A DNA stretch of 64,000 bases from an uncultured Planctomycetaceae bacterium (GTDB lineage Bacteria; Planctomycetota; Planctomycetia; Isosphaerales; Isosphaeraceae), in the NCBI GenBank assembly GCA_963833985.1, contig CAWIAD010000002.1, positions 544,001 to 608,000 on the forward strand. The letters are read 5' to 3'. A program made the translations under genes and the position numbers. The notes under the pieces are model-generated. The model had not been told where the DNA came from. It searched no databases and saw only the letters and a program-made list of their open reading frames with translations. How positions within the stretch are numbered: position 1 is the first letter of the stretch; every line of letters starts with the position of its first letter. Shown here in pieces: positions 2,637 through 16,240 of this stretch.

Positions 2637-5189
2637 ATGAGAGCCGTGCCGAACCTGTGCGTCATGATGGCCGTCCTCGGGCTCAGCCTCGGCCCAAGGG
2701 TCATGGCGGATGAGCGGTTGACGTTCGAGCGCGACGTCCGACCGATTCTCAAGGAGTTCTGCCTCGACTGCCACGGTGGCGGCGATGCCCCAAAGGGTCA
2801 GCTCGACCTGAGACTGAAACGCCTTGCCGAGCGCGGCGGGGACAGCGGTCCGGCGATCGTGGCGGGCAAGCCGGAAGAAAGCTATCTGCTGGACCGGCTG
2901 CGGGATGCCGAGATGCCCCCGGGCGAGAAGAAGGTCTCGCGCGAGAAGATCGCCGTGATCGAGCGCTGGATCGCTCAGGGCGCCGCCACAGTCCGACCCG
3001 AGCCGCAGCAGTTGCCGCCCGGTATCGACATCTCGCCGGAAGAGCGCTCGCACTGGGCCTACCAACCGATCCGCAGGCCGGTGCCGCCGTCCTTTCGTGG
3101 CGAGGACCGGGTGCGCACGCCGATCGATGCGCTTGTGTCCCGGCGATTGCGTGAGCACGGATTCTCCCTCGCTCCAGACGCCGATCGGCGGACCCTCATC
3201 CGCCGCGCCTCGTACGACCTCACGGGTCTGCCGCCGACCCAACGCGCGCTCGAGACTTTCCTTGCCGATACAAGGAGCGACGCGTACGAGCGGCTCATCG
3301 ACCTGCTCCTCGACTCGCCACGCTATGGCGAGCGGTGGGCGCGGCACTGGCTGGATACGGCCGGCTATGCGGACTCCGATGGTAACGGCAACGAGGATAC
3401 CGACCGTCCTTATGCCTACAAGTACCGCGACTACGTCATCCGGGCGTTCAACGCCGACAAACCGCTCGACCAGTTCCTCATCGAGCAGCTTGCCGGCGAC
3501 GAGCTGGTGCCCCGGCCCTGGAACAACCTCACGCCCCGCCAGGCGGAGACGCTGGCCGCCACGGGCTTCCTGCGGATGGCGGCCGACGGCACCTCGTCGA
3601 GCGCAGGCGACATGGCCCTGGCGTCCAACCAGGTCGTGGCCGACACGCTGAAGATCGTGGGCTCGACGCTGCTGGGCCTCACCGTCGGCTGCGCCCAGTG
3701 CCACGATCATCGCTATGATCCGATCCCCCAGTCCGACTATTACCGGCTTCGCGCCGTGTTCGAGCCGGCACTCGATCCCCAGCACTGGCGGAGACCGGGG
3801 CAGCGCCTCGTCTCCCTCTACCACGATGCCGATCGCGCCCGCGCCGCGGCCATCGGGGCGGAAGTCGGCAAGCTCCAGGCCGAGGTCGACAAGAAAACGG
3901 CGAAGTTCGTTGCGGTCGCGCTCGAGAAAGAGCTGGGAAAGTTCCCCGAGCCCCTGCGTACCAGGCTGCGGCTGGCACGTCAGACCGCGGCAGAGAAGCG
4001 CACGGCCGAGCAGAAGGCGCTGCTGGCTTCCCATCCCAGTGTGAACCTCACGGCCGGCGTGCTCTACCAGTACAACCAGGCCGCGGCCGATGAGCTCAAG
4101 AAAGACCAGGCTCGCGTCAATGCCAAGCGTGCGGAGATGCCCGTCGAGGACTTCGTGGGCGTGGCCGACGAGCAGCCCGGTCTGCGGCCAGAGACCCACC
4201 TGTTTCATCGTGGCGATCATCGCCAGCCCAGGCAGGTTGTTGTACCGGGTGATCTGACCATCGCCGCGGCTGACGGCACACGCTTGGAGATCCGCGACGC
4301 CCCCGGCAACGCACCAAGCTCGGGCAGGCGACTAGCCTACGCTCAGCATCTGGTCAGCGGCCGGCATCCCCTGCTTGGCCGCGCGCTGGTCAATCGCGTC
4401 TGGCTGCATCACTTCGGCCGCGGCCTGGTGGCAACCCCGGGCGACTTCGGCACGCTCGGTTCGCGGCCGACGCACCCCGAGCTGCTGGACTGGCTGGCCG
4501 ACGAGCTCGCGGCCTCCGGCTGGAGCCTGAAGCGGCTGCACCGGCTGATCATGTGCTCGACGGTGTACCGGCAGTCGTCGCGCCGCAATCCGGCGTTCGA
4601 CGCCCTGGATTCCGAGAATGCCCTCCTGGGTCGCTATCCCGTGCGCAGGCTCGACGCGGAATCGCTCCGCGACAGCATCCTGCTCCTGAGTGGACGGCTC
4701 GACCCGACGCTGTACGGCCCGGCGGTGGCGGTGGCCGAGGACTCCGTCGGCCTCGTCAACCCCGCCAACGACTCGCCCAGGCGGAGCATTTATCTTCAGG
4801 TCAAACGCACGCGGCCGGTGTCGCTGCTCGCGGCGTTCAACGCGCCGGTCATGACGGTGAACTGCGAGCGCCGGGTTCCCAGCACGACTGCATTGCAATC
4901 GCTTATGCTCATGAATAGCGATTTTGTACTCAAGGCCGCCAGCGCGATGGCCGCGGGGCTCCAATCGGGAGTCGCGAAATCTGACCTCGCCCGGCAGATC
5001 GAGCAGGCGTGGCAGCGCGTGTACCAGCGTCCGATCACGACCGAGGAGCTGGACTGGGCGCAGGGCTTCGCGGCCGAACAGCGTGCCGCGCTCGATCGCA
5101 CCGGAGCCGCCGGCGACCGGAGCCTGTCCGCGCTTGCCAGCCTGGTCCAGCAACTTCTTGACTCCAACGAGTTTCTCTATGTGGATTGA
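2637..5189 (+). CDS. Planctomycete cytochrome c / DUF1549 / DUF1553 (PSD1) domain protein
   Basis: Signal peptide, TFERDVRPILKEFCLDCHG (CxxCH), YGERWARHWLD, CAQCHDH.YDPI, NRVWLHHFGRGLV, HPELLDWLA; start placed at ATG 2637 (ORF track 2592). Confidence 0.92.
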   Translation: MRAVPNLCVMMAVLGLSLGPRVMADERLTFERDVRPILKEFCLDCHGGGDAPKGQLDLRLKRLAERGGDSGPAIVAGKPEESYLLDRLRDAEMPPGEKKVSREKIAVIERWIAQGAATVRPEPQQLPPGIDISPEERSHWAYQPIRRPVPPSFRGEDRVRTPIDALVSRRLREHGFSLAPDADRRTLIRRASYDLTGLPPTQRALETFLADTRSDAYERLIDLLLDSPRYGERWARHWLDTAGYADSDGNGNEDTDRPYAYKYRDYVIRAFNADKPLDQFLIEQLAGDELVPRPWNNLTPRQAETLAATGFLRMAADGTSSSAGDMALASNQVVADTLKIVGSTLLGLTVGCAQCHDHRYDPIPQSDYYRLRAVFEPALDPQHWRRPGQRLVSLYHDADRARAAAIGAEVGKLQAEVDKKTAKFVAVALEKELGKFPEPLRTRLRLARQTAAEKRTAEQKALLASHPSVNLTAGVLYQYNQAAADELKKDQARVNAKRAEMPVEDFVGVADEQPGLRPETHLFHRGDHRQPRQVVVPGDLTIAAADGTRLEIRDAPGNAPSSGRRLAYAQHLVSGRHPLLGRALVNRVWLHHFGRGLVATPGDFGTLGSRPTHPELLDWLADELAASGWSLKRLHRLIMCSTVYRQSSRRNPAFDALDSENALLGRYPVRRLDAESLRDSILLLSGRLDPTLYGPAVAVAEDSVGLVNPANDSPRRSIYLQVKRTRPVSLLAAFNAPVMTVNCERRVPSTTALQSLMLMNSDFVLKAASAMAAGLQSGVAKSDLARQIEQAWQRVYQRPITTEELDWAQGFAAEQRAALDRTGAAGDRSLSALASLVQQLLDSNEFLYVD

Positions 5190-6633
5190 TCCCCGCACAC
5201 AAAGCCGTCGCGCCTTCCTGGCCAGCACCTCGTTTGGCGTTGGTGCCGTCGCGCTCGCGGACCTGATGCGGCAGGAGGGGCTGCTGGCCGACACGGTCAA
5301 GAAGCCCGGCGAGAACCTGCCGCTGGACCTCCACCCGCGGGCGCCTCACTTCGCCCCCAGGGCGACGGCCCTGATCTCGCTGTTCATGCACGGGGGCCCG
5401 TCGCACGTCGACCTGTTCGATCCCAAGCCCCAGTTGAGCCGGTCCCACGGCACCGAGTACGGCGGCGATGTTGTCTTCAGTTTCGTCAACCGCGCCAGCA
5501 AGAAGCTCTTCGGCTCACCCTGGAAGTTCTCCAGGCACGGCCAGTGCGGCACGGAGGTCTCCGAGCTCCTGCCCGAGACGGCCCGCATCGTCGACGACCT
5601 GTGTGTGCTCCGCTCGATGCACACCGGGCACAACGGGCACGAGGTCTCCATTCGCTACTTCCACGGTGGCCTGCCGGCCATTGCCGGACGGCCCACGATG
5701 GGAAGCTGGATCGTCTACGGCCTGGGCAGCGAATCGAGGTCGCTGCCGTCATACATGGTCCTGGCCGATCCCGAGGGCCATCCCGTGGACGGCACGATTA
5801 ACTGGTCGAGCGGGTTCATGCCCACGCTCTACCAGGGGACGGTGCTCCGCGCCCAGGAGCCCAGGATCCTCAACCTCGACCCGCCTGGCCAGCTCGCTGG
5901 ATTGCCTCAGCGGCAGAACCTGGCGTTCCTCGACCGGCTCAATCGCCGCCACCTGGCACAGCACCCGGGCGAATCCGACCTGGAATCTCGGATCCACAGC
6001 TACGAGCTGGCCGCGGCCATGCAGACGGCGGCGAAGGAGGCGCTCGACATTTCGAGCGAGCCCGCGCACATCCGCCGGCTCTACGGCCTGGATGACGATG
6101 CGACCCGGGAATACGGCACGCGCTGTTTGATCGCCCGCAGGCTGGTGGAGCGCGGAGTACGCTTCGTACAGCTCTTTCTGGGTGGCCAGCCGTGGGATCA
6201 CCACACCGCCATTCGCCAGAGTTTGCCTGCCATCTGCCGGCGCACCGACCGGCCGGCAGCGGCGTTGGTGACGGATCTCAAGCAGCGCGGACTGCTGGAC
6301 ACGACGCTGGTGCACTGGGGCGGCGAGATCGGCCGGTTGCCGGTCAGCGAGGGAAGCCTCGACGCCAGCGCCGGGCGCGACCACAACGGCCAGGGCTTCT
6401 CAATCTGGATGGCCGGCGGCGGCATCCAGGGCGGCCAGACTTTTGGCGCCACCGACGAGGTCGGCCATCGCGCGGTCGAGAACGTCGTCACCCCCAACGA
6501 CTTTCAGGCCACGGTCCTGCACCTCTTCGGCCTGGACCACAACCGGTTGGTGTACCACGCCAGCGGCCGCGAGCAGCGCCTCACCGACGGCCGACCGGCC
6601 CGCGTCGTCAAGGAGATCCTGAGGAACGCGTGA
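5179..6633 (+). CDS. DUF1501 domain protein (Tat signal)
   Basis: SRRAFL Tat motif, LFMHGGPSHVDLFDPKP, ARRLVERGVRFVQ, WDHH, GRDHN; ATG 5179 overlaps the upstream stop; canonical partner of the PSD1 gene. Confidence 0.92.
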   Translation: MWIDPRTQSRRAFLASTSFGVGAVALADLMRQEGLLADTVKKPGENLPLDLHPRAPHFAPRATALISLFMHGGPSHVDLFDPKPQLSRSHGTEYGGDVVFSFVNRASKKLFGSPWKFSRHGQCGTEVSELLPETARIVDDLCVLRSMHTGHNGHEVSIRYFHGGLPAIAGRPTMGSWIVYGLGSESRSLPSYMVLADPEGHPVDGTINWSSGFMPTLYQGTVLRAQEPRILNLDPPGQLAGLPQRQNLAFLDRLNRRHLAQHPGESDLESRIHSYELAAAMQTAAKEALDISSEPAHIRRLYGLDDDATREYGTRCLIARRLVERGVRFVQLFLGGQPWDHHTAIRQSLPAICRRTDRPAAALVTDLKQRGLLDTTLVHWGGEIGRLPVSEGSLDASAGRDHNGQGFSIWMAGGGIQGGQTFGATDEVGHRAVENVVTPNDFQATVLHLFGLDHNRLVYHASGREQRLTDGRPARVVKEILRNA

Positions 6634-6649
6634 AACGTCCGGGTAGATT

Positions 6650-6945
6650 TCACGGCAGCAGATCCACCACCGCGATCGTGCCGGCAAACTGCCCGTCGAT
6701 CGTGACCGGCACGACCTGCCCGGGCGAAACATCGACACGGTTGCAATAGACGCCCGCGGCAGGGTCGGCGGCGGTGTGAACCTCGAGCTGACGGTCGCGC
6801 AGGTTCAAGACCCAATACACCGGGATCTCGGCGCGCGCGTACATTTCCAGCTTCTTGCCACGGTCGGTGGCCAGGCTCTTCTCCGCCACCTCGACCACCA
6901 GGCAACAATCCGCGGCCGTGGCATCGCGCGAGGCGTCATACTCGA
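6650..6945 (-). pseudogene. Uma2/DUF820 family endonuclease, 3' remnant
   Basis: LVVEVAEKSLATDRGKKLEMYARAEIPVYWVLNLRDRQLEVH is the C-terminal half of Uma2; the upstream half is replaced by the repeat array. Confidence 0.85.
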
Positions 6946-7340
6946 AGGATAAGGCGAAGGATAAGGAAGGATAAAAGGTGATAAGGGGCCACCCACGCTT
7001 CTGAGAGTGATAAGGGAGAGTGATAAGGAGTGATAAGGGGCCACCCACACTTCTGGCCTCCTACTCAAGAGTGATAAGGTGATAAGTGATAATAAGTGAT
7101 AAGGGGCCACCCACACTTCTGGCCTCCTACTTAAGTGATAAGGTGATAAGGAAGGTGATAAGAAGGTGATAAGGGGCCACCCACACTTCTGGCCTCCTAC
7201 TGGACAAACGGCTTCGACTTGGATACGTTTGTTCATTATGAGATGGGCCAGGTCGAAGTCGACCGCAGGAGGATAAGAGCAGGAGGATAACAAGGATAAG
7301 CAAGGATAAGCACAGGATAAGGGCCACCCACACTTCCTTC
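6946..7340 (-). repeat. Left end-repeat array of the RAYT-like element
   Basis: Five copies of (G)GGGCCACCCAC(A/G)CTTC at about 6985, 7037, 7103, 7173 and 7321, each preceded by several short units ending in GATAA(G). Confidence 0.95.
7201..7229 (+). promoter_or_regulatory. Second, diverged copy of the RAYT sigma70-type promoter
   Basis: TGGACA (7201-7206), 17 bp, TACGTT (7224-7229). Confidence 0.55.
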
Positions 7341-7346
7341 AGGTAC

Positions 7347-7375
7347 TGGACAAACGGTGCCGGATTAGGTACGTT
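7347..7375 (+). promoter_or_regulatory. Sigma70-type promoter of the RAYT-like transposase
   Basis: TGGACA (7347-7352), 17 bp, TACGTT (7370-7375); hexamers and spacing match the copy at 7201 although the spacer sequence differs; AGGAG RBS before ATG 7448. Confidence 0.65.
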
Positions 7376-7447
7376 TGATCATCACTAGGCGGACCAGGTC
7401 GAAGTCGACCGGGTCACCGATCGTCAGTCGATCAGGAGCACACCAGC

Positions 7448-8815
7448 ATGGCACGGCGGAATCGTGCGGAAGTCGTCGTCGCGGATGAGATGGGGGTCTA
7501 CCACTGTGTGCAGCGGATCGTACGCAGGGCGTTTCTCTGCGGGGTCGATCCGCTCTCAGGCAAGTCCTACGATCATCGCAGGGCATGGATCCGGGACCGC
7601 CTCGAGTCGCTCGCGGGGCTCTTCGGCGTGGAGATCGCCGCCTTTGCGGTGATGTCCAACCATCTTCATGTGATGCTCCGCATCCGTCCTGATGTGGTCA
7701 TGCTCTGGCCCGATCACGAGGTCGCCAGGCGCTGGCTGGTCCTCTTCCCCGGCCGGGTGGAGACCACGCCGGATCCCTCCACAATCCCGACCGCCATGGC
7801 CTGGCCGGTCGAACAGCACGGTCCAAGCCAGGCACCCGGCACCACGGCCTTGCCCTCCAGCGGAGCATTCACCGACCCGCTGGAACAGGCGGTCGCCATC
7901 CTCACCGCGGATCCTTCGCTGATGGCAACGATCCGCGGCCGACTCTCCAGTCTCTCATGGTTCATGCGTGCCCTGGCCGAGCCGATCGCCCGCCGGGCCA
8001 ACCGCGAGGACCGCTGCACCGGCCGCTTCTGGGAGGGCCGGTTCAAGTCGCAACGGCTGCTGGACGAGGCGGCCTTGCTGGCGTGCAGCATCTACGTCGA
8101 TCTGAACCCGATTCGCGCCGGGCTGTCTGATCGACCGGAGACCAGCGAGTTGACTTCCGCCCACGAGCGGATCATGGCCCTGCTCCAGGATGTCCCAGCC
8201 CACTGTGCACCCAGCGCATCACGTCTTGACGTCAGTCCTGTGGCAGTGGCACGGCCGAACGAGGCTCTGTCGTCTGCGGCGGAACAGGATACGCAAGTGC
8301 TTGTGGGAGAACCCCCTGTGGCGTCACCGGCTGCGGAAACCGTCCGCCGGGCCCGACCGCGCGAACACGAACGCGAGCAGGCTCACATGACGCTCCGCGA
8401 TGGCTGGCTCAGCCCGATCGAGCTGGATGAGCGCACCGAGCCGCTGACCACAGCCATGGCAGAACCGCGAGCGGCCGCGGCCGAGACGCCGGGCGAGCCG
8501 ACGCGAGCGCGGCGGGCCAGCAATCGCGGGCTGCTGCCGATGACGCTGGAGAACTACCTCGATTTGCTGGACTGGACGGGTCGACAAATGCGAACCGGGA
8601 GCCTTGGCGTGATACCCGCGGGGCTGGCGTCGCTTCTCGATCGGCTGCAAATCTGCGCCGGGACATGGCTGGAGACAGTGACGCGGTTCGGCCGCCGGTT
8701 CCACCGCGCGGTGGGGCTGGCAGACCACCTGAAGGCGGAAGCTCAGCGGCTGGGCGTGACCTGGCTGCACGGCGTCCGCTGGAGCCAGCAAGCGTTCGCA
8801 CCACCCGGTTCGTGA
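7448..8815 (+). CDS. RAYT-like HUH (Y1, IS200/IS605 superfamily) transposase, long form
   Basis: YHCVQRIVRRAFLCG, FAVMSNHLHVML (HUH), SLSWFMR, GRFWEGRFKSQ.LLDE, YVDLNPIRA (catalytic Tyr), YLDLLDWTGR. Confidence 0.9.
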   Translation: MARRNRAEVVVADEMGVYHCVQRIVRRAFLCGVDPLSGKSYDHRRAWIRDRLESLAGLFGVEIAAFAVMSNHLHVMLRIRPDVVMLWPDHEVARRWLVLFPGRVETTPDPSTIPTAMAWPVEQHGPSQAPGTTALPSSGAFTDPLEQAVAILTADPSLMATIRGRLSSLSWFMRALAEPIARRANREDRCTGRFWEGRFKSQRLLDEAALLACSIYVDLNPIRAGLSDRPETSELTSAHERIMALLQDVPAHCAPSASRLDVSPVAVARPNEALSSAAEQDTQVLVGEPPVASPAAETVRRARPREHEREQAHMTLRDGWLSPIELDERTEPLTTAMAEPRAAAAETPGEPTRARRASNRGLLPMTLENYLDLLDWTGRQMRTGSLGVIPAGLASLLDRLQICAGTWLETVTRFGRRFHRAVGLADHLKAEAQRLGVTWLHGVRWSQQAFAPPGS

Positions 8816-9079
8816 GCCCGTGGGTCCCCGCCTCGTTTCGAGCGATCGCGGCAAGTCTGGTAGGCCAGGTCTGATCGAGGCCGTGTGACCATCGCGGTCC
8901 TCGATTCGCGAATTCGGCACCGATGGCCAGTGCTCCGTCGCGTGGAAGGATTGTCCACGCCCGCGCAGCGAGCCTCCGCACGTTTTTGCTCCTCCAAGTT
9001 CGGGTCTGGGATGTCGGGACGCGCCGGGAGTGACTCACCGCCGCGGCGCGAGCATCCTGCAGAATGTGGGTGGCCCTAA

Positions 9080-10589
9080 TTCTACTGTATCCTGGGGTTG
9101 ACGAACTGTAAGGTTTTTTCTGATATTCGCTTCCGTCAAGGATATTACAAGGAAGCGAGGGCGTCATGGATCGACGATACGAAGCACGGTTGGCTGACAT
9201 GCTGGCACAATCGCAGGTGTCGCCTGACTTGGTCGATGGTCTGCTGGAACGGTTGGACGTCTTCATCGAGCCGTTCGCTGCGACCCTGAGTGAACCTGAA
9301 CAACATCGACATGCAACCGAGTACGTTACCGGTCTGCTGTCGAAGCTTGAGCACAAGACCGGCGAGGGAATCGCTTATCTCCACGATCAAGAACGACAAG
9401 GAATCCAAAAGTTCATCGGGCACGTGCCATGGGATCATCAACCCCTGCTCACGATCCTGGCGCAGCAGGTCGGCGAGCAACTGGGCGAGAAGGATGGGGT
9501 GATTATCTTCGACCCTTCGGGCTTCCCCAAGAAAGGGACTATGTCGGTGGGCGTCGCGCGGCAGTGGTGCGGCCGGCTGGGGAAGGTTGAGAACTGTCAG
9601 GTTGGCGTCTACATGGCTTATGCGTCTAGAAAAGAGCATACGATTACCAATGTAAGGCTTTACTTGCCCAAGGAATGGGCCAAGGATCGCGACCGCCGGA
9701 ACAAGGCTGGCGTTCCCAAGTCCATCAAGTTCCAGACGCGCCATCAGTTGGCCCTGGCGATGCTGGATGAGCAAGGTGGGTTGCTGCCACACGCGTGGGT
9801 GGCGGGGGACGATGAAATGGGCCGTCCCGCGAGTTTTCGCCAGGCGTTGAGGGAGCGGGGGGAGCAGTATCTGTTGGCGGTTCCGTCGAACACGACGATC
9901 CGCGATCTGGAGGCACCGCCACCGGAATATGGGGGGCGGGGTCAACCCCCCAAGGCTCCTTTCATGCGTGTGGATCATTGGCGTGCGGCCCTGCCGGAAT
10001 CGGCGTGGACGAGGCTCGACGTCCGTGATGGCGAGAAGGGACCTTTGGTGGTCGACGCGATCAAGCGGCGCGTCCAATCTCGAGGACCGGGCAATCGTGC
10101 AGGTTTCGAGGAGGTCCTCTTCATCACGCGTGAGCAACAGGCCGATGGAACAGTTAAACATGATTATTATTTATCAAATAGTAAAGCCGAAACTCCGTTG
10201 ATCGAATTTGGCCGGGTGGCCAAACTGGCGCATCGGATCGAGGAGTGCCTGGAGCGGGGCAAAGGGGAGGCGGGCCTGGCCGATTACCAGGTGCGGAACT
10301 GGATCGCCTGGCATCACCATCAAACCTTGTCGCTCGTGGCCGCGTGGTTCCTGAATCAGGAGACGCGGCGGGGAAAAAATACAGACACCGGCATTGACGT
10401 CACCGCGGTTGCGGCAACTGATCGCAGGGATCATCGAGGAACGTCTCAACGTCAACAGCCCCGAGAAGCTCTCCCGGTGCACCACACGTTGGTTGGAACG
10501 CAACGAGCTCGCCCGATTCTTCCAGCATTACTCACGCAAACTCTTACCCCCTTTGAAGAACCAACTACGAACGTAGAGATACAGTAGAA
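9080..10589 (+). mobile_element. IS701-family insertion sequence (1510 bp)
   Basis: Perfect 12-bp terminal IRs TTCTACTGTATC (9080-9091) / GATACAGTAGAA (10578-10589); 4-bp TSD CTAA (9076-9079, 10590-10593); removing it restores GGCCCTAATCAGACACC. Confidence 0.95.
9166..10576 (+). CDS. IS701-family DDE transposase; C-terminus probably reached by a frame change at GGGGAAAAAA (10370-10379)
   Basis: FDPSGFPKKGTMSVGVARQWCGRLGKVENCQVGV, WVAGDDEMG, RIEECLERGKGEAGLADYQVRNW..WHHH; TPALTSPRLR tail lies in another frame ending 10576 (zero frame stops at 10587). Confidence 0.92.
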
Positions 10590-11515
10590 CTAATCAGACA
10601 CCCTAATCAGACACCCTGCAGAATGTGGGTGGCCCCAATCAGACACCGCGGCGCGAGCATCCCGCAGAATGTGGATGGCCCCAATCACGCACCAATCAGA
10701 CGCCAATCAGACGCAGAATGTGGATGGCCCTAATTAGACACCATCGCGGTCCTCGATTCGCGAATTCGGCACCGATGGCCAGTGCTCCGTCGCGTGGAAG
10801 GATTGTCCACGCCCGCGCAGCGAGCCTCCGCACGTTTTTGCTCCTCCAAGTTCGGGTCTGGGATGTCGGGACGCGCCGGGAGTGACTCACCGCCGCGGCG
10901 CGAGCATCCTGCAGAATGTGGGTGGCCCTAATCAGACACCCTCTAATCAGACACCCTGCAGAATGTGGGTGGCCCCAATCAGACACCGCGGCGCGAGCAT
11001 CCCGCAGAATGTGGATGGCCCCAATCACGCACCAATCAGACGCCAATCAGACGCAGAATGTGGATGGCCCTAATTAGACACCATCGCGGTCCTCGATTCG
11101 CGAATTCGGCACCGATGGCCAGTGCTCCGTCGCGTGGAAGGATTGTCCACGCCCGCGCAGCGAGCCTCCGCACGTTTTTGCTCCTCCAAGTTCGGGTCTG
11201 GGATGTCGGGACGCGCCGGGAGTGACTCACCGCCGCGGCGCGAGCATCCTGCAGAATGTGGGTGGCCCTAATCAGACACCCTGCAGAATGTGGGTGGCCC
11301 CAAGCAGAGTGCCAAGCAGAGTGCCAAGCAGAGTGCCAAGCAGAGTGCCAAGCAGAACCGCCCCAAGCAGAGTGCAAACGTTGAGGATGAAGGCAGTGGC
11401 TGCGCTGAAAGTCAGCATGCGATGCAGGCCGGGAGGGCAACCGGTCTCTTCTCTCTTTTGTAATGCCATGAATCTTCAAGAGTTACGTTCACGATGGAGG
11501 GTCCCCAGCCAGGTC

Positions 11516-11531
11516 GGGCATGAAAGCTGCT
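11516..11531 (+). promoter_or_regulatory. Possible sigma54 (-24/-12) promoter upstream of gltB
   Basis: GGGCATGAAAGCTGCT: GG-N10-GC, partial match to TGGCACG-N4-TTGCW. Confidence 0.35.
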
Positions 11532-11657
11532 CTTTCGCCTGCGTTCTGTTCACGGGTCGTTCTCGCAGGTTCGTGCCTTTCACAGCTGAGACTCAGTCAA
11601 GTAGCTTCTTCGCCGCATGACCGGCTCAGCGTTTGAACGGTCAGGCCGGAACTGTCC

Positions 11658-14600
11658 ATGGCACAACTCAAGACTCCGGTTGACTTCGTATCGCTGCCGC
11701 TTGCGAAAGCAGGGCTCTATGACCCGGCTTTCGAGCGAGACTCGTGCGGGGTGGGGTTCGTGGCCGATCTCAGCCGCCGGAAGAGCCACGCGACGATTCA
11801 GAGCGGACTCCAGGTGCTCAAGAACCTGCAACACCGCGGCGCGTGCGGTTGCGATCAGGATACGGGCGACGGCGCGGGCATCCTCATGCAATTGCCCGAC
11901 CATTTCTTTCGAACCGAGAACGTGGCGCTGGCGGACCGGCTGCCCGCCGACGGAGATTATGGCGTGGCATTTGTCTTCCTGCCCCGCGGTGCATCCCAGC
12001 GCCTGATCTGCCATCGGACGCTGGAGGCGATTGTGGCCGCCGAGGGACAGAACATTCTGGGATGGCGTGACGTCCCCGTTGTCTCCTCGTCGATCGGCTG
12101 GCTGGCGCGCTCGCAAGAACCGGTGATGGAGCAGTTATTCATCGGCCGTGGCGAGGGGACGGCCGCGGGGGACGCGTTCGAGCGGAAACTCTATCTGATT
12201 CGCCGCCAGGCCGAGAAGTGGGCCTACTCGGAAAGCATCGGCAACGATGCCCTCGGTTTCGCGATCGCCAGTTGCAGCGCACGCACGATCGTCTACAAGG
12301 GCATGCTCAAGCCGGATCAGTTGCCGGTCTATTTTCCGGACCTGGGCGACTCCCGAATGGAATCGGCCCTGGCCCTGGTGCACAGCCGGTACAGCACCAA
12401 TACGTTTCCGCGGTGGGGGCTGGCACAGCCCTTCCACCTGCTGGCGCACAATGGAGAGATCAATACCCTTCAGGGCAACCTGCACTGGATGCAGGCGCGC
12501 CAGTCCCGGATGAAAAGCCGTGTGCTGGGCGCCGATCTGGAGAAGACCCTGCCACTCGAGTTCGAGGGCATGAGCGACTCGGCGGCCGTTGACCAGGTGC
12601 TTGCACTCCTGGTCCACTCGGGCCGTAGCCTTCCCCATGCGCTCATGATGCTCGTGCCCGAAGCCTACGAGGCAGACCGCTTCATCGACCCGGCCCGCCG
12701 CGCCTTCTACCAGTACCACAGCGGCCTGATGGAGCCCTGGGATGGGCCGGCCAGCCTGGTGTTCTGTGACGGCGTCCGGATCGGGGCCATGCTCGACCGC
12801 AATGGGCTGCGGCCCGGCCGCTACGCCGTCACGCACGATAACCTGGTGGTCCTGGCCAGCGAAGCCGGCGTACTGCCGATCCCGCCCGAGGCAATCCGGC
12901 TCTCGGGACGGCTGCAACCGGGAACGATCTTCCTGGTCGACCTCGCCGCGGGGCAGATCGTCGGCGATGCCGAGCTCAAAGAGTCGATCTGTCGCGCTCA
13001 GCCTTATGGACTGTGGCTGGAAAAGCACCAGGTCCACCTGGCGGACCTGCCCGCGCCGGCCGATGTCCCCGCGGCCGATCTCGAGACGCTGCTCGCCCGC
13101 CAGCAGGCCTTTGGCTACACCCAGGAGGATATCACGCGCATCCTGCTGCCCATGGCCCAGGACGGCAAGGAGCCGGTCTCGAGCATGGGCACCGACATCC
13201 CGCTGGCCGTGCTCAGCCGGCGCAGTCAGATCCTCCCCAATTACTTCAAGCAGCTCTTTGCTCAGGTCACGAATCCGCCCATTGATCCGATCCGCGAGAA
13301 GATCGTCATGAGCACCGAGACTCTCCTGGGTTCCGAGCAGAACCTGCTCGAGGAATCCCCGGAGCATGCTCGGCTCTTGCGTCTCAAGTCGCCCACGCTC
13401 AGCAACGCCGAACTGGCACAAGTGCGAGCCATGCGGTCGGTGGGCTTTCGGCCCCAGACGCTGTCCATCCTCTTCGACCGCAGCGCGGGCGAGGCTGATC
13501 TGGCGCCGGCGCTCGATCGCCTCTGTGCCACGGCCTTGCAGGCGGTCGACCGGGGTGCCACGATCCTCATCCTCTCGGATCGCGGCGTGAATGCCGACCA
13601 GGTGCCGATTCCCCCGCTGCTGGCAACGGCTGCCGTGCACCACCATCTCATTCGCAAGGGCCAGCGCACCCGCTGCGGGATCGTGGTCGAAACCGGCGAG
13701 GCGCGGGAGATTCACCACTTCGCGCTTTTGATCGGCTATGGCGCGGGGGCCGTGAACCCGTACCTCGTCGCCGAGACCTTCGAGGGCCTGGCGCGCGAGC
13801 AGTTGCTCCTGGAGGCTCAAGGCGCACCGCTGGAGCCCGGTCAGGCGTTGAAGAACTACACGAAAGCCATCGACGCGGGGTTGCTGAAGATCTTCAGCAA
13901 GATGGGCATCAGCACTCTGCTGAGCTATCGCGGTGCCCAGGTATTCGAGGCCATCGGCCTGAACCAGGCGGTCATTGACCAGTATTTCCCGGGCACGCCC
14001 AGCCGGATCGGTGGCATTGGACTGGAGATCATCGCGCGGGAGGTGCTGCAGCGTGTCGAGGTGGCGTTCCCGGGCGCGGCCGGTCCCGAGATCCCGCAGC
14101 TCGATCCCGGCGGTGAGGTCATGTGGCGGCGCCGGGGCGAGCACCACATGTGGAACCCCGAGACGATCCAGAAACTCCAGCACGCCCTCAAGAAGCAGGA
14201 GTTTTCCAGCTACAAGGAGTTTGCGGCCGCCAGCAACGACGAGAGCCGGCAGTTCTGCACGCTCCGCGGTCTGCTGGAGATCAAGCCCGCGCGCAAGCCA
14301 ATCCCGCTGGAGATCGTCGAGCCCGCCGCGGAGATCGTCAAGCGGTTCTGCACCGGCGCGATGAGCTTCGGCAGCATCAGCAAGGAGGCCCATGAATCGC
14401 TCGCCATCGCGATGAACCGGATCGGCGGCCGCAGCAACACGGGCGAAGGAGGTGAGGACCCCGCCCGGTTCCGCCGCGACGCCAACGGCGACTCTCGCAA
14501 CAGTGCCATCAAGCAGGTGGCCAGCGGGCGCTTCGGCGTCACCGCCCACTACCTGGCCAGTGCCCTGGAGATCCAGATCAAGATGGCCCAGGGGGCCAAG

Positions 14601-16240
14601 CCGGGCGAAGGAGGTCAGTTACCCGGCCACAAGGTGGACAGCTTCATCGCCAAGACACGGCACAGCACACCGGGGGTGGGACTGATCTCGCCTCCCCCCC
14701 ACCACGACATTTACTCGATCGAGGACCTGGCACAACTGATCTTCGATCTCAAGAACGCGAACCCGCACGCGGAGGTTTCGGTCAAGCTGGTGGCGGCCGC
14801 CGGCGTGGGAACCATCGCCACGGGAGTCGCCAAGGGATACGCTGACCGCATTCTCATCAGTGGCGACGGCGGCGGTACGGGAGCCTCGCCGCTTTCGAGC
14901 ATTCGCCACGCAGGTGTTCCCTGGGAGCTCGGCCTGGCCGAGACCCAGCAGACTCTCGTGCGCAACGGGCTGCGGGGCCGGGTCAGGCTCCAGACCGACG
15001 GCCAGATCAAGACCGGACGCGACGTCATCGTGGCCGCCTGCCTGGCGCAGAGGAATACGGCTTCGCCACGGCGCCGTTGATCGCCATGGGCTGCGTGATG
15101 ATGCGGAAGTGCCACCTGAACACTTGCCCGGTGGGCATCGCCACGCAGGACCCGGTGCTTCGCGCGCAGTTCTCCGGAACGCCCGAGCAGGTGGTCAACT
15201 ACTTCTTCTTCGTGGCCGAGGAAGTGCGGGAACAGCTCAGCGTCATGGGCTTTCGCACGCTCGACGAGATTGTCGGCCGGGCGGACCTGCTCGTTCCGGC
15301 CGACCGCCAGCAGCACTGGAAAGCCAAGCACCTCAATCTCCAGGCCATCCTCGAGGTCCCCAAGGTTCCCCATGGAACGCCGGTCCGTCGCGTCGAGCGC
15401 CAGCCCGACGTGCTGGCTGACCAGCTCGACTGGGAACTGCTGCGTCTCTGCACCGATGCCGTGGAGCACCAGAAGCGCGTCCAGCGGTCGCTGTTGATCT
15501 CCAACCGCAATCGGACGGTGGGCACCCTGCTCAGCTACTTCGTCACCAAGAAGTACGGCGAGCACGGGCTGCGCGAGGACACGATCGACATCCAGTTCAC
15601 CGGCAGCGCGGGGCAGAGCTTCGGGGCGTTCCTGACCCGGGGTATCACCTTGCGTATTCGAGGCGACGCCAACGATTACGCGGGCAAGGGGCTCTCGGGA
15701 GGAAAACTCGTGGTCGCCCCGCCCGCGCAGGCTGGTTTCACCGGCGGTCAGAACGTGATCGTGGGTAACGTTGCGCTCTACGGCGCAACCGCTGGCGAGG
15801 CTTTCTTCCGGGGCTGCGCCGGCGAGCGGTTCGCGGTTCGAAACAGCGGGGCCAAGGCCGTCGTCGAGGGCGTGGGCGACCACGCCTGCGAGTACATGAC
15901 CGGCGGCGTCGTGGTCGTCCTGGGCGAGACCGGCCGGAACTTCGCCGCGGGCATGAGTGGCGGTTACGCGTTCGTGCACGACCCCGCGGGCCGCTTCCGT
16001 GATCGCTGCAACCTCGAGATGGTCGATCTTGTCGCGGTCGATGATTACAAGGACGTGGGCTTGCTGAGCAACCTCATCAACCGCCACGTGCTCTACACCG
16101 GCTCGGACATCGGCAACGAGATCGTCAACGACTTCTCCAATGCCCTGGGAGCTTTCATCAAGGTCCTTCCCCGCGATTACAAGCGGGTTCTGGAGCAGAA
16201 CAAGATCGTCCAGAGGCAATGGGAGCTGATCAATGGCTGA
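11658..16240 (+). CDS. gltB: Glutamate synthase large subunit (one frameshift near 15045, likely sequencing error)
   Basis: DSCGVGF N-terminal Cys, [68 protein letters not shown], then [15 protein letters not shown] and GltB C-terminal domain in the next frame. Confidence 0.97.

Follow-up and report, generated by a model that had tools for sequence, protein, structure and literature searches.

A TIRtron-like HUH transposase element with stuttered, inverted ends in a planctomycete genome, and a possible origin of its end arrays by nicking and re-copying

The DNA analyzed here (the window) is a 64,000-nt stretch from an uncultured Planctomycetaceae bacterium (GenBank assembly GCA_963833985.1, contig CAWIAD010000002.1, positions 544,001 to 608,000 of the forward strand). 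It contains an element built around a gene for a RAYT-like HUH/Y1 tyrosine transposase, bracketed by two inverted arrays of partial copies of the element's own ends (Table 1). As assembled, the motif TGGRTGGCMC occurs in five minus-strand copies on the left (6986-6995, 7038-7047, 7104-7113, 7174-7183, and 7321-7330) and in ten plus-strand copies on the right (9067-9076 and nine more within 10626-11300); all 15 copies face outward from the 455-aa gene, which is also bracketed by inverted arms of 17-19 nt. Exactly these counts had been given in a first-pass annotation made from the letters alone, and its description of segments with a common outer end and variable restarts agrees with what we found. 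The segments of both arrays are nested, share their outer end, and restart inside the element at about -90, -28, -28, and -18 in the left array and at about -21, -36, -18, and -189 in the right array (negative positions lie inside the motif, positive ones beyond it); the distances in the annotation are close to these ranges (-18 to -90 and -18 to -189).

The annotation was right to place a motif array to the right of the gene but overlooked that 1.5 kb of its interval (9080-10589) is an ordinary IS701-family insertion sequence. The latter is 1,510 bp long, has 12-bp inverted repeats and a 4-bp target duplication, sits directly past the first right motif in the motif tail, and encodes a DDE transposase (9166-10587; NCBIfam IS701 match, E 3e-106); 13 copies are listed in the genome. 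Its target at this site (9076-9079) ends in AA, and 10 of the 13 listed copies follow NTAG. Similarly, the nested re-copies that had been described are present, but the commonest unit in all arrays parsed is a 7-14-nt repeat of the tail without the motif, and a 340-bp tandem duplication had been missed. This single event accounts for four of the ten right motifs, and it may have arisen by recombination, by one long re-copy, or in assembly. The diverged left re-copy of ~90 nt occurs in both copies of the element in this genome and is therefore part of the mobile unit. Promoter and terminator scans of the locus stayed at chance level.

Table 1. Features of the element and its left flank, in window coordinates
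Feature	Position	Strand	Remark
Left flank: Uma2-family endonuclease gene, 3' half	6650..6946	-	Pfam Uma2; truncated by the element
Left end array, 5 motif copies and short tail stutters	6943..7330	-	
Outermost left 12-nt unit pair	6966-6955 and 6954-6943	-	Takes in 4 bases aligning with the Uma2 target
Older, diverged ~90-nt left-end re-copy	7174..7273	-	79% to the inner end over 68 nt
Innermost left end motif	7321..7330	-	
HUH/Y1 tyrosine transposase gene, 455 aa	7448..8815	+	
Innermost right end motif	9067..9076	+	
IS701-family insertion sequence, later passenger in the right array	9080..10589	+	
Right end array, 9 further motif copies, tail stutters, re-copies from -18 to -36	10590..11375	+	
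Perfect 340-bp tandem duplication within the right array	10603..11282	+	0 differences in 340 nt
189-nt right-end re-copy	10740..10928, again at 11080-11268	+	
Tail sequence switch at the outermost right motif, 12-nt units	11300-11375	+	

The transposase carries the motifs NHLH (residues 71-74, with H72 and H74), FWEG (194-197), YVDLNP (216-221, with Y216), and TS (236-237), together with two low-complexity insertions and a long C-terminal tail conserved to residue 450. Across 95 aligned relatives, selected out of 120 listed, the HUH histidines, Y216, N220, and P221 show no variation or almost none. Matches to Pfam Y1_Tnp and NCBIfam RAYT fall below the cut-offs, a PDB sequence search gave weak Y1 matches only, and Foldseek with the predicted model (pLDDT 79) returned nothing at E ≤ 0.001; the best structural match of the model is TnpA_REP (4ER8; Z 11.4, root-mean-square deviation (rmsd) 3.0, 158 aligned), and the IS200/IS605 Y1 core 2vhg scores lower (Z 7.8, rmsd 7.4, 113 aligned). 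The family is large, with 7,765 proteins at E ≤ 1e-20 among 8,000 candidates examined; Alteromonadales relatives match the window protein at 42-45%, and this genome encodes two near-identical copies of the 455-aa type and more than 10 of a related 355-aa group.

Judged by motifs, spacing, and tail, the protein fits the TnpA_Y1 subclass 2.3 type. Table 1 of Quentin 2018 (PMC6006769) gives this subclass the HuH motif NH[Y]H, the W motif WE, the Y motif YVDLNP, and a proximal TS. The NHxH, WE, YVDLNP, and TS motifs, the long HUH-Tyr spacing, the long tail, the presence of several copies, and the absence of a repetitive extragenic palindromic (REP) hairpin are common to both. The differences are a middle HUH residue L instead of Y, a length of 455 aa versus a median of 325, an H72-Y216 spacing of 144 aa, with a lineage-specific insertion, versus a median of 110, and Planctomycetota-like relatives here versus Alteromonadales in the accessible part of that paper. 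In the same part, subclass 2.3 is described as lacking REP-like ends or an associated flanking repeat, and no evidence is reported for the mobility of class 2; the RAYTs with the highest duplication rate, group 1 of Bertels 2017 (PMC5581495, in the portion available), are placed there in subclass 2.1. In contrast, the elements described here have an inverted motif conserved at their ends; they stutter, mini-elements accompany them, and one has a 99.2% duplicate.

Homologues were compared at 79 loci from Planctomycetota, with several per genome, which came from the best 80 of 103 matches. Of 69 loci evaluable upstream, 64 have an inverted motif within 220 nt, and downstream 27 of 51 have one within 520 nt, at a background density of 0.14 motifs per kb; most ends read GTGCCAYCCA (inward). 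Outer stutter, the tandem repetition of sequence just outside the motif, was observed at 25 of 91 homologue ends versus 68 of 1,280 control positions. In this genome, 35 of the 56 strict TGTGGRTGGCMC sites stutter on the outer side versus 9 of 56 on the inner side; five control motifs give rates of 1-8%, and random positions 4.8%. The 355-aa group of this genome has the same stutter pattern and a different upstream motif. In one congener (G004), the arrays grow to 43 right and 28 left motif copies, over ~1.3 and ~1.0 kb, respectively. Eight of 13 gammaproteobacterial records from complete sequences were inspected by eye and carry related ends; seven of the eight show stutters or re-copies. No significant hairpin was detected at the ends (six end folds, z from +1.2 to -1.35), 88 of the 91 homologue ends do not preserve the 3-bp palindrome, and GTGG is present inside the motif without a stem. 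The comparison supports the TGGRTGGCMC-type motif as a family-wide end signal.

Several single loci show other arrangements. At L125 (G021:C7), end re-copies extend over 250 bp on the left and ~540 bp on the right, the right one taking in the 3' part of the gene; the element end at L100 adjoins a fragment that by eye resembles another transposase, and that at L106 lies inside another subclass 2.3 gene. Other repeat families of this genome (e.g., at C1:297084, C2:5714558, and downstream of C2:3198699), among them a REP-like palindrome that terminates in GCCTGTCC and a family with an end of the CTGACAC type, also show short stutters just outside their ends.

The arrays of the window are known from the assembly alone, and their origin as an assembly artefact or by enzyme-independent replication slippage was considered as a rival explanation. 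In the one read run found, 6% of words were shared, and at 80% likeness the arrays had zero coverage, with two short pieces of the gene start and IS701-like bits matched; this run points in neither direction. The perfect 340-bp block and the apparent frameshifts of the assembly speak for an artefact. One such frameshift lies in the second copy of the transposase gene; the other splits one gene, presumably the glutamate synthase large subunit gene gltB, into two overlapping open reading frames (11658-15080 and 15077-16240) by a real frameshift or an assembly indel. However, the stutters are one-sided, keep a fixed distance from the motif, and are absent at control motifs; they are also locus-specific and present in many independent assemblies, complete isolate records among them. 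We consider this explanation very improbable for the locus, and for the family as a whole it is largely refuted.

The geometry of the stutters was characterized at two levels. The tallies of units, junction peaks, and restarts count dependent events, the unit parse includes some chance arrays, and the greedy repeat parse, which over-splits at point variants, was used for long restarts only; independent counts were taken from one innermost motif per cluster or from independent exact duplications. The modal unit is 11-13 nt long and spans -1/0 to about +11. The junctions of exact tandem copies cluster at +9 to +13, outside the motif, and a further, second peak lies near +22. By innermost motifs, junctions at +9 to +13 occur at 5 of 42 sites of the genome's own strict motif, 15 of 39 sites of its 355-aa subfamily, and 13 of 133 sites of homologue loci. 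No inner window has more than 1, and the counts at control sites are 0 of 79 for four of the control motifs together and 1 of 233 for the fifth. Restarts peak at -1/0, tail inward to -189, and have no single preferred base (65 events, partly dependent). The fixed outer end agrees with the suggestion of the first-pass annotation that the enzyme nicks at a fixed end motif, but the position we infer for the nick is 9-13 nt outside the motif.

These dimensions can also be read as a staggered double nick at about -1 and +11, with 12-nt overhangs that would be filled in before either the enzyme or host end-joining seals the break, leaving repeated units that resemble target duplications. The modal unit, the 1-3 extra bases that are common at junctions, and the two Ku genes of the host agree with such a scheme. 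On the other hand, the re-copies of 20-540 nt that share the outer end would need a second route, insertions occur without an 11-12-bp target duplication, and Ku was not found in four of five stuttering genomes (all incomplete), a finding that we count in favor of the model proposed below. We regard the staggered nick as unlikely.

Microhomology was scored at 33 independent exact duplications: 11 have no shared base and 8 have one, and a homology-blind null gives 51% and 25%, respectively. Microhomology is thus modestly enriched and not required for re-copying, and the restart at short shared sequences, to which the annotation had drawn attention, holds as a modest excess over the null and not for the 19 of 33 duplications with 0-1 shared base. 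An alternative based on such homology, in line with the reading of the annotation, is that the 3' end of the outward strand slips and re-primes at a short shared sequence (template switching), or that a fork collapses at a nick and is repaired out of register. It would account for the 2-4 shared bases at the long right-hand restarts and for the modest enrichment of microhomology across the family; recombinational expansion would fit both the kilobase arrays and the perfect 340-bp duplication, and nickase-driven array expansion exists (PMC12008805, in the part available). The same 19 duplications, the bases inserted at inexact duplications, and a -1/0 restart peak that recurs across unrelated tails and is left unexplained make it an improbable primary cause, although it may act secondarily on existing arrays.

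Mobility of the element is indicated by its second copy (C2:2518841-2520769), which matches the window copy at 99.2% identity over 1,929 nt, lies between unrelated flanks, and on sequence grounds is evidence of movement. The two copies differ in their outer arrays; on the left they have the inner array in common, and on the right the first 11 nt of the tail. The transposase gene of the second copy (G000:C2:2519136-2520501; L002, L003) has a 1-nt insertion near codon 327-331 that shifts its frame, and its right end carries the longest stutter of short units. Among 30 paralogous end sites of this genome, 15 share outward sequence to +9..+12, none to 13-20, and 4 share longer stretches that include an array; therefore, the stutter end is the longest simple tail that is carried along. 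The tail likeness of left and right ends (4.4 of 10 within versus 3.4 of 10 between elements) was left unused, as it is confounded by relatedness.

On the target side, similarity of the interrupted Uma2 gene to intact congener homologues reaches 6946 and ends there, and its 5' half was not found in the genome by tblastn. In the last left 12-nt unit pair, four bases align with the Uma2 frame of a 72%-identical homologue, which is moderate evidence, from a comparison with Uma2 homologues alone, that the array grew after the junction had formed. In-place growth, as suggested in the first-pass annotation, is supported by the locus-specific outer arrays and by this target-aligned unit, but the inner parts of the arrays travel with the element. 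An uninterrupted site was not found in 14 congener genomes searched with both flanks, in which orthologous neighbors are present. Comparison of L133 and L144 (G010:C6:89115-95144) with window positions 4924-11900 shows flanking-gene orthologues 5.6 kb apart in opposite relative orientation, hinting at an inversion near the site of the element. No short target duplication was detected (no 2-5-bp enrichment at offsets 0-14 in 33 end pairs), and no abutting repeat of at least 9 bp was found in 36 loci except L105, where a 114-bp, 99% direct repeat abuts both ends, starting 7 and 12 nt beyond the outer motifs. The repeat at L110 (79% over 123 nt) was not counted as a target duplication, as it does not abut the left end.

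Arrays without the gene, for which the annotation had proposed a scan, are present: the genome contains 25 motif clusters, and a RAYT match lies near just 4 of them. Gene-less mini-elements of 150-200 bp have the same outward-facing motifs and also stutter. A large gene-less cluster with motifs in both orientations and many stutters lies beside an unrelated 479-aa open reading frame (G000:C2:2584850-2586050), and in a 16-kb region (G000:C2:490500-506500) several mini-elements and fragments of subclass 2.3 genes bound small gene blocks, possibly as composite units. The mini-elements, the changes of tail sequence inside arrays, and the divergence of some re-copies are what would be seen if excised end pieces or mini-elements had repeatedly used the element's own ends as insertion sites, an origin that has been proposed for REP clusters. 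This is hardly probable, since most units are 7-14 nt long, do not contain the motif, and repeat tail sequence of the locus in which they lie, and they would be too short for a circular intermediate.

What has to be explained is the motif, the geometry of the stutters with a fixed outer end, the recent duplication, the mini-elements, and the absence of a fixed target duplication, all of which are observed. We favor, with a probability of about 0.5, a TIRtron-type element of subclass 2.3 that would be nicked ~11 nt outside the motif, with flank-primed inward synthesis, stalling, and re-ligation. The proposed route has five steps: (i) the transposase would bind the same motif, TGGRTGGCMC, at both ends; (ii) it would nick the inward-reading strand ~9-13 nt outside the motif and stay linked to the 5' end via Y216; (iii) the freed 3'-OH of the flank would prime inward host synthesis, displacing the protein-linked strand; (iv) synthesis would mostly stall after ~11-12 nt at the edge of the bound motif, and sometimes after tens to hundreds of nucleotides; and (v) the enzyme would join the new 3'-OH to the linked 5' end, producing a tandem copy whose outer end is fixed and whose inner end varies. 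New nick sites would arise wherever a copy contains the motif, so that arrays could run away, and the tandem re-copies would represent abortive rolling-circle starts. In transposition, the same 5'-linked ends would each be joined separately to a host 3'-OH, giving no fixed target duplication and, occasionally, long duplications or flank deletions.

Binding, nicking, strand, priming, and re-ligation are inferred from sequence patterns. We prefer this model because one nick-extend-rejoin route predicts the fixed outer end, the variable inner end, the independence of homology, and the matching boundary of the mobile unit. The conserved catalytic HUH and Tyr residues were also counted in its favor, and an HUH nick as the trigger of re-copying, as the first-pass annotation had suggested, seems likeliest. 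Parts of the route have precedents in the accessible portions of the literature: an oligonucleotide with a 3'-OH, when added, serves TnpA_REP to resolve its 5'-phosphotyrosine (PMC8266576), and IS91, for which rolling-circle copying from a nicked end is presumed, leaves no target duplication (PMC13181058).

A number of observations weigh against the nick-extend-rejoin model. Outward sharing is often short: 11 of the 30 paralogous end sites share merely 1-6 nt, homologue pairs share at most 9 outer nt (at most 7 in 23 of 30), and in the 355-aa subfamily 10 of 12 pairs share merely 1-7 outer bases; element tails are often replaced. No right motif lies inside 520 nt in 24 of the 51 homologue loci, stutters are present at only 25 of the 91 homologue ends, and just one of the 36 loci offers a clean example of the long direct repeat. 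Microhomology of at least 3 nt at 9 of the 33 independent exact duplications, versus 11% in the null, is a modest excess, and the 1-3 extra bases at many junctions mean that pure copying needs nested events. The host encodes Ku. No DNA-binding domain was identified in the predicted model, and action at a distance from a non-hairpin motif would be unlike the characterized Y1 enzymes, which, in the parts of PMC8266576 and PMC6006769 available, use single-stranded hairpins and dinucleotide or tetranucleotide sites.

Among known systems, the TIRtrons are the most similar in layout. The first-pass annotation held that the architecture fits neither known kind of element; it does correspond to the TIRtron/TIRYT of Di Nocera 2013, in which, by the text available (PMC3733652), a RAYT-like tyrosine transposase gene lies between terminal inverted repeats unrelated to REPs. 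There, the repeats also occur elsewhere as dimers or clusters, and a GGGGWSAS consensus is present in some, not all, TIRtrons, unrelated terminal repeats being allowed. The RAYT-like gene between inverted repeats and the gene-less repeat clusters elsewhere in the genome are shared with the window element. Its end, read inward, is GGGGCCAC or GGTGCCAC and not GGGGWSAS, position 5 being C. The published description, whose figures and supplements may bear on this, does not mention nested re-copies, a cut position, or mobility, and 20 of 26 published TIRtron examples belong to subclass 2.1 and none to 2.3, according to the available portion of PMC6006769.

Other HUH systems share less of this layout. 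The REPtron or REPIN-RAYT system (E. coli TnpA_REP, 4ER8) has the closest solved fold, the YxxxNP class, and non-autonomous genomic partners in common with the window element; the latter differs in that its ends lack a GT[AG]G-footed stem-loop, its cut would be set by distance and not by a fixed C|T dinucleotide at variable distance, and the gene itself duplicates, as far as the sources available describe the former. IS91 resembles it in the HUH enzyme, the presumed rolling-circle start at a nicked end, the absence of a target duplication, and variable end points (PMC13181058, available part); the two ends of IS91, ori and ter, are distinct and it is target-specific, whereas here the same inverted motif is present at both ends, both stutter, and the protein is of the Y1 type. 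The IS200/IS605 elements (IS608, ISDra2) share the Y1 HUH core fold and the absence of a target duplication but have asymmetric hairpin ends, YxxxQ, and fixed short targets, in contrast to the YxxxNP and symmetric non-hairpin ends found here. Classical DDE insertion sequences differ from this element family by their fixed short target-site duplication.

The basic architecture is thus already known as the TIRtron layout, and the element class is already named. New, relative to the literature found, are the end motif of subclass 2.3 and its stutter, with a quantified prediction of the cut site; literature searches did not find stuttered ends or a subclass 2.3 end motif, with the qualification that figures and supplements of PMC3733652 and PMC6006769 may bear on this. 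A bolder and more tentative proposal, to which we give somewhat less credence than to the model itself, is a third mode of HUH transposition: a Y1 enzyme would recognize a non-hairpin, probably double-stranded inverted motif and nick at a ruler distance, both ends would serve as rolling-circle-like origins, and the 5' ends would be joined to any host 3'-OH. Through abortive starts it would then write tandem repeats in vivo, building telomere-like arrays as long as 1.3 kb both in cis and on mini-elements, in Planctomycetota and Gammaproteobacteria.

These results bear on the movement of class 2 Y1 (RAYT-like) genes and of the repeats that accompany them. From the locus and its relatives come a candidate for the bound motif, a prediction of where and on which strand the nick falls, and natural mini-substrates; array growth offers a cheap experimental readout, and the recent 99.2% duplicate is evidence of movement. 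The partly re-copied ends point to the cut position of the enzyme and to a possible mode of movement. If the model is true, it would explain a widespread class of irregular bacterial tandem repeats and would add to the HUH enzymes one whose site-directed duplications need no hairpin.

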